Positions 11,380-17,443 of a DNA stretch of 64,000 bases are shown piece by piece. The stretch lies in IMG/VR virus record IMGVR_UViG_3300008116_000004; one strand, given 5' to 3'. The notes beneath the pieces were generated by a model. The model searched no databases, was not told the origin of the DNA, and saw only the letters and a list, made by a program, of their open reading frames with translations. A program made the position numbers and the translations under genes. Every line of letters begins with the position of its first letter. Within the stretch, counting starts at the first letter, position 1. Source of the DNA: a virus.

Positions 11380-13410
11380 TTACTTACTAGTAGCTCTGTA
11401 AACCCCATCAAAACCTTTAGGTGGTCCATCTTCCATACGCTCGAGCATCATGTCATAATAGTGCTCGAGCTTTCCATTAAAGCATGTTTTTAATTCTTTT
11501 GCAAGCTTAGACGCCCCGCCCCAATTGCCATCATAATAATAAGATAAGAATCTAAAGTGTGTCTTTTCTTGATTATTAGCCCAATCGGCTTTATCAACAA
11601 GCGTATAGATCTTCACACCTTCTTTTTTACCTTTAACCGCAATACAATCTAATTCAATAACGTTATAAGAACTCTTTACCTGATTAGCGGTTTCTGGTCC
11701 GAGGATGATCTGTACTCCATAGTTTTTTGATTGTCCTTCGAGTCTTGAGGCTAAATTAACATTATCCCCAAGGCAAGTATAATCAAAACGTTGTATACTA
11801 CCCATGTTTCCCACAACAACATTACCAGTATTGATACCCAATCCCATACCGAACGGGGGGACTCCCTCTTTGGCAATCTCATCATTAAACTCCTTCAACT
11901 TATCTAACATCTTGACTGCAGCTTCAACAGCATGTTTAGCATGCTGTGTATCATCAAGAGGTGCATTCCAAAATGCCATTTGTGCATCACCAATATACTT
12001 GTCAAGTGTTCCGTTTGACTCTAAGATAGACTGAGTCATTGCAGTCATGTAACGATTCATTATCTTAGTAAGACCTTGAACGTCTGTACCGTAATGTTCA
12101 GATATAGAAGTAAACCCGCGAACGTCAGTAAACATGATAGATAACTCTCTTGTCTCACCACCAAGTTGTAGAAGTTCTGGATTCTTCTGTAACTTCTCGA
12201 CCATTGCTGGTGATAGATATGTTCCAAATTGCTTCTTGATTTGTAACTTCTGTAGATACTCAGATATCATTTTCTGAGCAACAATCATAAAGTAAATTAG
12301 TGAACCAGCTAATAGTATATAAGAAGAATCCCAAAGCTGGTTATAAGTTGTAAACAGATAGCTTTGTGTGTATGCTACTGCAGGAAACAATATTACATAA
12401 ACTGGAACTGTCCAAAGTACAGGGAGTCTAGTAACTATTAATATGATAAGAAGACCAAGTAGTGCAAACGCTAATAGTTCTACAGTAGGTGCAATTGCAA
12501 TACGTTCTGGTGTTGTTCCAGCAAATACAGAAAGTAGTGCCTGTGCTTGTAGATCTTGAACAAATTGTTCACCATGAGGTGTGGCAACTACTGTAGAAAC
12601 TCCAGATGCAGACACACCTAGTATAACTAATTTACCTTCAACATCTTTTTGTTCTACATCTAAGAAATCTATATGCTTAAAACGGCTAGAAGGGTCAAGC
12701 CAAATACGAGCATTAGCATCAGTGTTAATAGTCTTAAACTGTGGAATGCGTACAGCCTCGATACCTGCTTCTCCAGTTTTAATTTGGAACGATGGGTCAT
12801 CTGTTAATGTTCTTATTATTTCTAAAGGAAGGGAAGGATATAGTTGATCGCCAATTCTCACTACCATTGGCATACGTCTGATAACACCATCTATTTCTGG
12901 TGTTGATGCAATAGTACCAACACCAGCAGCATTATCTGCAAATTGCTTTAACGGAGCAACAGCACCAGGCCAGCTAAAAGTATAGGGGAGAGGGTCAGCA
13001 CCAATGGCAGAAAATCCTCTCCTAACAGCATCAGGTTTTTGGGTTTGGTTGGTAGGCACCTGCGCAAGTACGATACCCCCAGATCCCACAGATTTTGCAA
13101 ATTCATTATCGTGTCCGCTCCTATCGGGTTCTGAAAACAAAATAGGGAATACTATTACACCAGCTTGATAATGACGAAGACGTTCAATCATATCAGCAAA
13201 CTCTTTACGATCAATAGGCCACTGACCCAGCTTTTCGAGAGTCTTATCAGATACGTCTACAATTACAATATCTTCGTTTGTTGTTATCTCTTTACTTCGT
13301 AACGTATAGTCAATAGACTTAAGTTCAAGAATTTGTACTGGATATGGATTCCAAACCTTAAGTGCTACTAATGCACCAAGTACAAGTAAAGAAATAAGAA
13401 GATTTTTCAT
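11380..13410 (-). CDS. CHASE2-domain membrane class III adenylate cyclase
   Basis: N-terminal TM; CHASE2 motifs (IVIVDV, GQWP..R, DGVIRR.P, YPSL.LE); three TMs; cyclase motifs MFTDVRGFT, DKYIGDAQMAFW, DYTCLGDNVNLASRLEG. Confidence 0.95.
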   Translation of the reverse strand: MKNLLISLLVLGALVALKVWNPYPVQILELKSIDYTLRSKEITTNEDIVIVDVSDKTLEKLGQWPIDRKEFADMIERLRHYQAGVIVFPILFSEPDRSGHDNEFAKSVGSGGIVLAQVPTNQTQKPDAVRRGFSAIGADPLPYTFSWPGAVAPLKQFADNAAGVGTIASTPEIDGVIRRMPMVVRIGDQLYPSLPLEIIRTLTDDPSFQIKTGEAGIEAVRIPQFKTINTDANARIWLDPSSRFKHIDFLDVEQKDVEGKLVILGVSASGVSTVVATPHGEQFVQDLQAQALLSVFAGTTPERIAIAPTVELLAFALLGLLIILIVTRLPVLWTVPVYVILFPAVAYTQSYLFTTYNQLWDSSYILLAGSLIYFMIVAQKMISEYLQKLQIKKQFGTYLSPAMVEKLQKNPELLQLGGETRELSIMFTDVRGFTSISEHYGTDVQGLTKIMNRYMTAMTQSILESNGTLDKYIGDAQMAFWNAPLDDTQHAKHAVEAAVKMLDKLKEFNDEIAKEGVPPFGMGLGINTGNVVVGNMGSIQRFDYTCLGDNVNLASRLEGQSKNYGVQIILGPETANQVKSSYNVIELDCIAVKGKKEGVKIYTLVDKADWANNQEKTHFRFLSYYYDGNWGGASKLAKELKTCFNGKLEHYYDMMLERMEDGPPKGFDGVYRATSK

Positions 13411-13748
13411 TGTGTCTGGTTCACTATCAATGGATATGGATTACAAGATGATATGCCGCAGTACTGTTGTATAGAATAAGAAAGGTTAGAAGAACTATTC
13501 TGTGTAACTGAAATATTATAGTTATTAAAGTTACCATATAATTCTATATTAGAACTATGATTTCCTCCACCTTGTTGATCTATAGAAACAGTACTGTTAT
13601 TTAGGTCTGTTGCTAGAAAGTTTGATGTAGGATCTCCAATCTGAGTAGCAGTTATAGCATTACTATTGCCAGTCAGATTAATAATATTGCTTCCTGCATA
13701 ACAAGGTGTAACTATTAGTAATAGAATTAAACTAATTATTTTTTCCAT
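13407..13748 (-). CDS. Small secreted curlin-like protein (start revised to 13748)
   Basis: Signal peptide MEKIISLILLLIVTPCYA; N/Q/G/S repeats GNSNAITATQIG, SIDQQGGGNH, SVTQN. Confidence 0.7.
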   Translation of the reverse strand: MEKIISLILLLIVTPCYAGSNIINLTGNSNAITATQIGDPTSNFLATDLNNSTVSIDQQGGGNHSSNIELYGNFNNYNISVTQNSSSNLSYSIQQYCGISSCNPYPLIVNQTQ

Positions 13749-14467
13749 AGGATTACTTCCATAGTTCCGTCCATATGCTCGACAATTGCTGAGCAAGTTT
13801 CGACCCAATCCCCACAATTAAGATACGTAACTCCCATAATATCTCGTCTATTAGGATGATGAATATGCCCACAAACAATACCATCACACCCAACAGATTT
13901 TGCATAATTGCAGAGAGTTTTTTCATAATCGCCTATAAAATTTACAGCTTTTTTGACTTTATATTTAAGCCAAGAACTAATAGACCACGGCTTAAATTTT
14001 AATTTATTTCTTATTCTATTAATAAAAACATTTATCACTATGGATACATCATAAGCCCAGGATCCAAAATGAGATAACCATTTGGCGTGCTCTATAACAA
14101 CATCAAATTGATCACCATGTATGACAAGATACTTCTTACCATCTACTCCTATATGATAATCTTTATCTATTAATTTTATATTACCAAATTCATGATCGCC
14201 AAAACTTCTTAAAAATTCATCATGGTTACCAGGTATGTAAATTACTTCTGTACCTTTACGAGCCATTCTCATTAACTTCTGAATAACATCGTTATGAGTC
14301 TGAGGCCAATAAAAAGATTTATATAATGCCCAACCATCAATAATATCACCTACTAAGTATAATTTTTCACATTCAAATGTTTTAATAAATTCTAAAACTT
14401 GATTAGCTTGCGACATCTTAGTGCCAAGATGAATATCAGATATAAAAACTGTTTTATACTTGTTCAT
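13736..14467 (-). CDS. Calcineurin-like metallophosphoesterase (LpxH/YbbF-like)
   Basis: SDIHLG, VGDIID, PGNHD, HGD, GHIH, NCGDW motifs. Confidence 0.9.
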   Translation of the reverse strand: MNKYKTVFISDIHLGTKMSQANQVLEFIKTFECEKLYLVGDIIDGWALYKSFYWPQTHNDVIQKLMRMARKGTEVIYIPGNHDEFLRSFGDHEFGNIKLIDKDYHIGVDGKKYLVIHGDQFDVVIEHAKWLSHFGSWAYDVSIVINVFINRIRNKLKFKPWSISSWLKYKVKKAVNFIGDYEKTLCNYAKSVGCDGIVCGHIHHPNRRDIMGVTYLNCGDWVETCSAIVEHMDGTMEVILWKK

Positions 14468-16987: not shown

Positions 16988-17421
16988 ATTGCAAGACTTC
17001 CCAAAGGAACAGTTATGTCAGTTGTCAAACCACCAGCGTCAGTTATTATTAAATGTATACCATCTGCAGTTGATTCCCAGAATATATTAGAACCAGCAAC
17101 ATCAAAAGACCCTGTTGTTAATCCTTGATCTGAAAATAACTGCTCAGCAATTTTCTGAGATATAGTAGCGTATATTCTACTCTCTAAGTTATTAAGAAAC
17201 TTAGCTAGATTAGTATTTTTAGCATCTGCAGCAGCTTTCGCTTCTGCAGCTTTTTTATCCTCTATAATCTTCATCTTACGAGTGTACTCTTGATTTTCTA
17301 TCGTAAGAACATGCGAAGACCACCCTTCACCAGAGAATGAAGGGTTATTAAACTTGAACACCATCTCAGAAGCTGAGGCTGGAGTTATTATCAAAAAACC
17401 TGCTAAAACGTATCTAATCAT
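16984..17421 (-). CDS. csgF: Curli assembly protein CsgF (start revised to 17421)
   Basis: Signal peptide then MVFKFNNPSFSG, matching the CsgF N-terminal F.NP.F.G motif; GGAGG RBS. Confidence 0.88.
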   Translation of the reverse strand: MIRYVLAGFLIITPASASEMVFKFNNPSFSGEGWSSHVLTIENQEYTRKMKIIEDKKAAEAKAAADAKNTNLAKFLNNLESRIYATISQKIAEQLFSDQGLTTGSFDVAGSNIFWESTADGIHLIITDAGGLTTDITVPLGSLAI

Positions 17422-17435
17422 AAATACCTCCGTGA

Positions 17436-17443
17436 TATTTATA
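17436..17443 (-). promoter_or_regulatory. T4-type late promoter TATAAATA driving the csgF operon
   Basis: Exact consensus 15 nt upstream of the csgF ATG; a divergent CATAAATA lies at 17419-17426 (+). Confidence 0.75.

Follow-up and report, generated by a model that had tools for sequence, protein, structure and literature searches.

Introduction

The closest described relatives of the locus analyzed here are the curli cassettes of pelagiphages. A csgF/csgG operon was reported by Zaragoza-Solas (2020; PMC7029224), a role in lysis timing was discussed for the phage Melnitz by Buchholz (2022; PMC9004378), and Wittmers (2022; PMC9599517) described a region, conserved in podo- and myo-pelagiphages, that comprises CsgF, CsgG, CsgA/B, FecR, another CsgA/B, and adenylate cyclase. 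This cassette was found at all 65 GOV2.0 stations surveyed, with evidence of its expression in Pacific metatranscriptomes, and its podovirus form occupies several percent of the genome (PMC9599517). The host lineages are reported to carry no curli genes (PMC9599517, PMC9004378). In the cassette papers, the CHASE2 domain is not named and FecR is read as an iron regulator. FecR and CHASE2 proteins have also been linked in bacteria: a LysM-FecR protein occurs with a CHASE2 kinase in Burkholderia (BiofilmReg; PMC5192318), in Sinorhizobium meliloti, the CHASE2-cyclase/Clr pathway targets the FecR-domain protein SMc02177 (PMC5498481), and one cluster in Campylobacterota unites genes for a CHASE2 cyclase, a phosphodiesterase, a FecR protein, and a TPR protein (PMC9239204). 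The outer-membrane protein NsrA acts upstream of the CHASE2 cyclases of S. meliloti (PMC7529298, PMC13001267). Here, we describe a seven-gene operon of the cassette type on a viral DNA stretch of 64,000 nucleotides (IMG/VR record IMGVR_UViG_3300008116_000004; the whole stretch is hereafter called the window), in which the FecR protein and the CHASE2 adenylate cyclase would form an envelope sensor that couples a minimal curli apparatus to the synthesis of cyclic adenosine monophosphate (cAMP).

Results and Discussion

Identity of the Locus

A PHROG scan of the window matched DNA polymerase, helicases, major head protein, portal, sheath, and terminase, and by these gene matches the source of the window is a T4-like marine phage. 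The best DNA matches, which were also the only ones in the phage collection, were to Methylophilales phage Melnitz and to the Pelagibacter phages HTVC008M and Mosig, so that both lines of comparison place the window among the pelagimyophage/Melnitz-type genomes. The operon comprises seven head-to-tail open reading frames (ORFs) that run from 17421 down to 11380 on the minus strand and are separated by overlaps or gaps of a few bases. Its features are as follows.

17436-17443, minus strand: T4-type late-promoter-like TATAAATA; exact motif, 14 nt 5' of GGAGG and the csgF ATG
16984-17421, minus strand: csgF; 145 aa from ATG 17421, Pfam CsgF 64 bits, E 1.7e-17, signal peptide
16187-16987, minus strand: csgG; 266 aa, Pfam CsgG 173 bits, E 8.5e-51, lipobox LLVGC
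15509-16183, minus strand: curlin-repeat protein 1; 224 aa, signal peptide, Curlin_rpt 20.5 bits
14464-15585, minus strand: exported FecR-domain protein; 373 aa, exact start uncertain, Pfam FecR 46 bits, E 5.8e-12
13736-14467, minus strand: LpxH-like metallophosphoesterase; 243 aa, signal peptide absent, Pfam Metallophos 52 bits
13407-13748, minus strand: small secreted curlin-like protein 2; 113 aa from ATG 13748, C-x3-C...IVNQTQ end
11380-13410, minus strand: CHASE2 class III adenylate cyclase; 676 aa, CHASE2 132 bits, E 2.6e-38, Guanylate_cyc 78 bits, E 6.5e-22

The preliminary description of this DNA, which was made from its letters, had claimed such a tightly packed unit of seven genes, and all seven ORFs were recovered. 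The identities that it assigned held for csgF, csgG, curlin 1, FecR, the metallophosphoesterase, and the cyclase, while that of the second curlin-like protein received weak support. It had further presented the locus as the best candidate in the window for an undescribed system, and this part has to be given up, as the cassette with FecR and cyclase was published in 2022 (PMC9599517) and is annotated in HTVC008M (KC465899, a 2013 record) and Melnitz (MZ577095). Both genomes show the same gene order, and their annotations name the cyclase, FecR, and curlin genes. The window shares gene set, order, and lineage (Kyanoviridae-type T4-like) with the pelagiphage cassette of Wittmers, the order csgF-csgG-curlin-FecR-(second curlin)-cyclase being found on one strand. 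The window locus is therefore a member of the published pelagiphage/Melnitz-type viral curli cassette and was already known.

The window differs from the published cassette in one gene, since here and in two relatives (L007 and L014) an LpxH-like gene lies between FecR and the second curlin-like gene; this inserted variant is what the window adds. It also differs from the podovirus cassette, as no histidine kinase was found 5' of csgF. The ORFs adjoining csgF (17464-18089) lie on the opposite strand and gave zero Pfam matches. The upstream histidine kinase was described for Podoviridae and is hence not required of the myovirus form (PMC9599517).

Conservation of the Cassette among Viral Relatives

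More than 590 IMG/VR contigs were found to encode a cyclase 50-94% identical to that of the window. Of the 80 that were fetched, 46 reach 4 kb or more beyond the cyclase on its upstream side. The preliminary description would, by its own account, have been refuted by relatives whose cyclase stands apart from csg genes, which is not what the relatives show; csgF, csgG, curlin, and FecR were located in this order upstream of the cyclase in 45 of the 46 viral loci, and the single exception ends upstream of a long insertion. This linkage was kept down to 50% cyclase identity. The gene position after FecR, here called slot 2, is empty in approximately 10 related loci, where FecR abuts the cyclase. 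Wherever slot 2 is filled, FecR always lies between two curlin-like genes and not beside the cyclase alone.

A scan of genome contigs yielded only three from metagenome-assembled genomes (MAGs), labeled Bacteroidetes/Chitinophagales (L003, L004, and L005), which encode a cyclase of 47-54% identity. The upstream genes of the cassette are present in L004 and L005, and L003 carries the cyclase only. In the genome of L004, matches to CsgG and CHASE2 were confined to this one contig. These three contigs are probably phage contigs that were mis-binned into bacterial MAGs.

FecR-Domain Protein and CHASE2 Cyclase

The AlphaFold2 model of the FecR protein (predicted local distance difference test, pLDDT, 66) consists of a signal peptide, a FecR β-domain that begins at approximately residue 30, a low-confidence linker, and a small C-terminal β-domain. 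When compared with the C-terminal cell-surface signaling domain of PupR (6ovk), this model gave a Z score of 14.1 and a root-mean-square deviation of 2.9 over 136 aligned residues, which together with the Pfam match to FecR identifies the FecR periplasmic fold. The phage protein has this fold in common with the FecR/PupR anti-sigma factors, of which the PupR domain binds the signaling domain of an outer-membrane transducer. It differs from them in that both the cytoplasmic anti-sigma domain and the membrane anchor are absent, and neither an extracytoplasmic function (ECF) sigma factor nor a TonB-dependent transducer lies nearby; the Pfam scan detected no sigma factor in the operon. A cell surface anchoring domain (5ix9) was considered for the C-terminal domain and rejected, because the match falls on residues 26-120 and is too weak (Z 7.1).

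The hydrophobic stretches read from the cyclase sequence indicate an inner-membrane enzyme with an N-terminal transmembrane (TM) segment, a periplasmic CHASE2 domain, a TM block, and a catalytic domain. The Pfam CHASE2 match spans residues 15-320, and CHASE2 thus lies between the TM segments. The enzyme aligns with CyaB of Pseudomonas aeruginosa (3r5g, E 2.4e-30), catalytic residues included. A complete catalytic set of two metal-binding Asp, the substrate-specifying Lys/Thr, and the transition-state Asn/Arg had been claimed for it, and all six residues (D429, K471, D475, T545, N552, and R556) are present, with little or no variation across 40 homologues. The active site of the cyclase is complete by this comparison, and cAMP synthesis is predicted. 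A complex prediction in which CHASE2 (21-306) and mature FecR (28-373) were supplied as alignments returned a score of 0.00, which counts neither for nor against binding.

FecR/CHASE2 Pairs in Bacteria

A FecR-domain gene was located beside a CHASE2 gene in all five of the plasmids opened, which derive from Ruegeria, Shinella, Methylosinus, Paracoccus, and Paraburkholderia. In the Paraburkholderia plasmid, an OmpA-family gene lies between the two. CHASE2 was also detected in 70 of 151 sampled Bacteroidota genomes, and in ten extended loci from this phylum (L119-L128; e.g., L122:1612-5882) the cyclase is preceded by ORFs of approximately 380, approximately 240, and 800-920 aa. A Pfam scan of three of these loci identified the ~240-aa gene as a FecR-domain gene in each. 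A hidden Markov model built from the phage FecR protein missed these genes, which were revealed by longer flanks and the Pfam scan. The ~380-aa protein is secreted and matched no family. The 800-920-aa protein has no Pfam match, and its model (pLDDT 76) is composed of two Ig-like domains and a large β-barrel, whose fold matches ushers, MtrB, and TonB-dependent transporters; a named family was not found for it in the protein atlas. This protein, which is encoded between FecR and the cyclase, is accordingly a predicted outer-membrane β-barrel as far as the model goes, and the Bacteroidota cluster seems to be an uncharacterized envelope cAMP sensor system.

An exported FecR protein next to CHASE2 is hence common to the phage cassette and to the bacterial modules (NsrA to CyaD1/D2/K to Clr, BiofilmReg, Campylobacterota, and Bacteroidota). 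In the latter, an outer-membrane or envelope protein often lies between or beside FecR and CHASE2, and the output is a class III cyclase as in the phage. The outer-membrane partner in the phage would be the curli pore together with the curlin-like proteins, a partner that none of the bacterial loci examined showed. The PupR-like fold devoid of anti-sigma and membrane parts, together with these bacterial pairs, argues that the phage FecR protein is better regarded as the periplasmic half of an envelope sensor than as an iron regulator. The hypothesis for the phage cassette is thereby sharpened to FecR being one half of a widespread FecR/CHASE2 envelope sensor.

The Shinella (L087) and Paracoccus (L131) plasmids carry cyclic-nucleotide-binding proteins near the FecR-CHASE2 pair, one of which is fused to a patatin-like phospholipase. 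Such proteins near the bacterial pairs are candidate receivers, which are lacking in the phages searched.

Curli Pore and Curlin-Like Proteins

With the curli system of Escherichia coli (csgBAC-csgDEFG) the phage operon shares CsgG aligned over its full length, CsgF, and curlin repeats. The CsgF product scored 64 bits against a Pfam cut-off of 25.8 bits, and an alternative upstream TTG start at 17451 is less likely than the ATG at 17421. Its predicted mature N-terminus, read from the sequence, is MVFKFNNPSFSG, which we take to resemble the peptide of E. coli CsgF that inserts into CsgG. A sequence search of the PDB with CsgF gave spurious lectin-repeat matches only. CsgG aligned with the E. 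coli structures 3x2r/6l7a with an E value of 6e-46, and its lipobox LLVGC, previously claimed to be intact, can be read directly from the sequence.

The constriction loop of the phage CsgG is KPNDRFADLSTAV, whereas the E. coli counterpart is KPYPASNFSTAV, and the pore-lining residues differ. In the alignment to 3x2r, N/D/L occupy the positions of Y51/N55/F56, which we assume to be the constriction residues of E. coli CsgG in this numbering; the E. coli-type residues are not retained. The properties of the phage channel may thus differ from those of E. coli CsgG. The phage operon also differs from the E. coli system in its smaller gene set: csgE, csgC/H, and csgD, which the preliminary description had called unrecognizable, gave zero matches among the seven operon proteins with Pfam and NCBIfam, the search of the window being not exhaustive.

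Curlin 1 scored 20.5 bits with Curlin_rpt, just below the cut-off of 20.7, while 31 of the 34 phage orthologues matched this family (best E 5.7e-10). The Q/G/N columns of curlin 1 are invariant at the repeat spacing. Through this protein and its orthologues the operon contains a curlin-repeat subunit of type VIII secretion; a solved relative of curlin 1 was not found by sequence. Curlin-like protein 2 is weakly curlin-like, with E values of 0.003 for CsgB and 0.001 in BLASTP against curlin 1.

Curlin-like protein 2 occupies slot 2, whose gene is hypervariable in the related phages, with products ranging from 86 to 637 aa. At their C-terminus, the slot-2 proteins retain a motif in which (I/V)(I/V)NQ(Y/Q) comes after two Cys. 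The longer versions found in some phages end in curlin-like repeats, which are preceded by an F5/8 type C domain. The slot-2 product hence resembles a surface protein with a curlin anchor and exchangeable heads, and the window holds its minimal form. Curlin-like repeats combined with variable heads, including the lectin-type F5/8 type C domain, fit a surface-exposed component, and the slot after FecR can be described in the sharpened hypothesis as encoding a modular, hypervariable, curlin-anchored protein. The heads in this family range from none (86-117 aa) to the F5/8 type C lectin-type (~580-640 aa), as exemplified by L053:8127-9869, L055:5277-7196, and L064:4676-6586. In a subset of divergent phages, large proteins with an Amidoligase_2 domain are encoded between the slot-2 gene and the cyclase (L055:7609-9885, L064:6596-8608, and L065:5945-7936).

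Late-Promoter-Like Site

The exact late-promoter motif that had been claimed ahead of csgF was confirmed as TATAAATA at 17436-17443 on the minus strand, 14 nt before GGAGG. Six exact copies of this eight-mer occur in the window (569, 17436, 34935, 48261, 51895, and 53516), all on the minus (coding) strand, and it is not enriched, as approximately 10 copies would be expected. Three of the six lie just 5' of structural genes of the head/portal region, which fits T4-type late promoters. The operon is probably expressed late, judging from this site.

LpxH-Like Metallophosphoesterase

Residues 6-221 of the phosphoesterase align with LpxH of P. aeruginosa (5b49, E 4e-6), and LpxH was the only match among PDB sequences. 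The protein possesses a GNHD motif, in place of which LpxH presumably has GNRD. It scored 59.4 bits (cut-off 134) and 46 bits (cut-off 190) with the NCBIfam LpxH equivalogs and so falls below the level of an equivalog. Identification as a CpdA-type cAMP phosphodiesterase was rejected, because the sequence matches are all to LpxH and the gene is inconstant in the cassette.

The phosphoesterase gene lies inside the cassette solely in the window and its relatives L007 and L014, and is absent from the L006 locus, whose cyclase is 94% identical. It was detected in 11 of the 80 loci, elsewhere just after the cyclase or kilobases off. Homologues were found in a Synechococcus phage, a fecal phage contig, and Mosig, whose copy is unlinked to curli genes. 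From this distribution, we take it for an accessory gene that moves independently and has by chance been inserted at this site. The preliminary description had counted it among the operon members, which is correct for the window but does not extend to the cassette, of which it is not a constant part.

Proposed Mechanism and Alternatives

By analogy with the bacterial pairs, we give somewhat better than an even chance to the cassette being a minimal curli module joined to a FecR/CHASE2 sensor, in which FecR couples the outer-membrane apparatus to cAMP late in infection. Two modules would thus be combined, one a minimal curli secretion and fibre/adhesin module without csgE, csgC, and csgD, and the other a FecR/CHASE2 sensor pair. 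The CsgGF pore would export the curlin-like proteins to the surface of the infected cell, and the periplasmic FecR-fold protein would couple the state of the outer-membrane apparatus, or a surface ligand, to CHASE2. This input would then set cAMP synthesis at a late stage of infection, and the receiver of the cAMP is probably not encoded by the phage. A trans-envelope relay had been proposed in the preliminary description; the analogy with the PupR fold, the bacterial FecR/CHASE2 pairs, and NsrA makes plausible a candidate path that would lead from the outer membrane via FecR to CHASE2.

Three observations weigh against this coupling. Only 13 of 49 related phage loci have the exact TATAAATA motif at the same position ahead of csgF. 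No cyclic nucleotide-binding domain (PF00027) was detected in the Melnitz, HTVC008M, and Mosig genomes, for which the controls were positive; in contrast to the NsrA/CyaK-type pathways, these three genomes thus yielded no receptor of the Crp/Clr type. Furthermore, the divergence of the CsgG constriction residues means that the pore may not handle curlin as it does in E. coli.

The hosts SAR11 and OM43 belong to the ocean's most abundant bacteria. Since these hosts reportedly carry no curli genes and the cassette is widespread and expressed, it probably provides infected cells with a new surface property and a second-messenger input.

Another explanation, unlikely yet credible, is that the cassette serves aggregation or shielding, where curli-like fibres or an adhesin serve the 'sibling capture' of host cells or form a barrier against superinfection, and FecR and the cyclase only regulate or tune secretion instead of passing outside events on to the cytoplasm. 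This idea was proposed in PMC7029224 and PMC9599517 and agrees with the presence of all minimal curli parts (CsgG, CsgF, and curlin-repeat proteins), as well as with those slot-2 proteins that pair a carbohydrate-binding F5/8 type C head with a curlin-like C-terminus. However, clumping was not seen in Melnitz infections (PMC9004378), and a late lytic operon leaves little time for transcriptional feedback by cAMP. It also leaves unexplained why the cyclase is retained in 45 of 46 loci.

A more specific form of the proposed coupling is that a curlin-anchored surface sensor reports contact with a cell, a particle, or a phage via CsgGF/FecR/CHASE2, and that a non-canonical receptor lets cAMP alter the timing or outcome of infection. 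We regard this as distinctly unlikely in so detailed a form.

Functional independence of the neighbors is very unlikely; curli genes, FecR-cyclase pair, and phosphoesterase would then be separate auxiliary genes gathered in one hypervariable region. The phosphoesterase does move on its own, bacterial FecR-CHASE2 pairs occur without curli genes, and some phages have amidoligase-domain insertions within the cassette. Against this explanation speaks how strictly the order is conserved, as order and linkage persist down to 50% cyclase identity and also across podo- and myovirus families (PMC9599517). In addition, FecR sits between two curlin-like genes and not next to the cyclase alone.

Least probable of all is a pore for lysis timing, in which CsgGF acts as a gated outer-membrane channel or pinholin-like release control with the curlin-like proteins and cyclase as accessories; it was proposed for Melnitz from modeling and synteny (PMC9004378) and accords with the diverged CsgG constriction loop and the late-promoter-like site 5' of csgF. 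Holin-type timing, however, works at the inner membrane and CsgG is a lipoprotein of the outer one; moreover, conservation of the curlin-repeat genes equals that of the pore, and Pfam identified no lysis genes in the cassette.

Neighboring Genes

A tRNA-Met (CAT) gene is located at 18884-18959 of the window on the minus strand, approximately 1.4 kb upstream of the operon. The auxiliary genes flanking the cassette encode an Hsp20-family protein, an IscA-like Fe-S biosynthesis protein, and a protein with a PNKP-type haloacid dehalogenase (HAD) phosphatase domain (window 8664-9260, 9280-9612, and 19254-19694).

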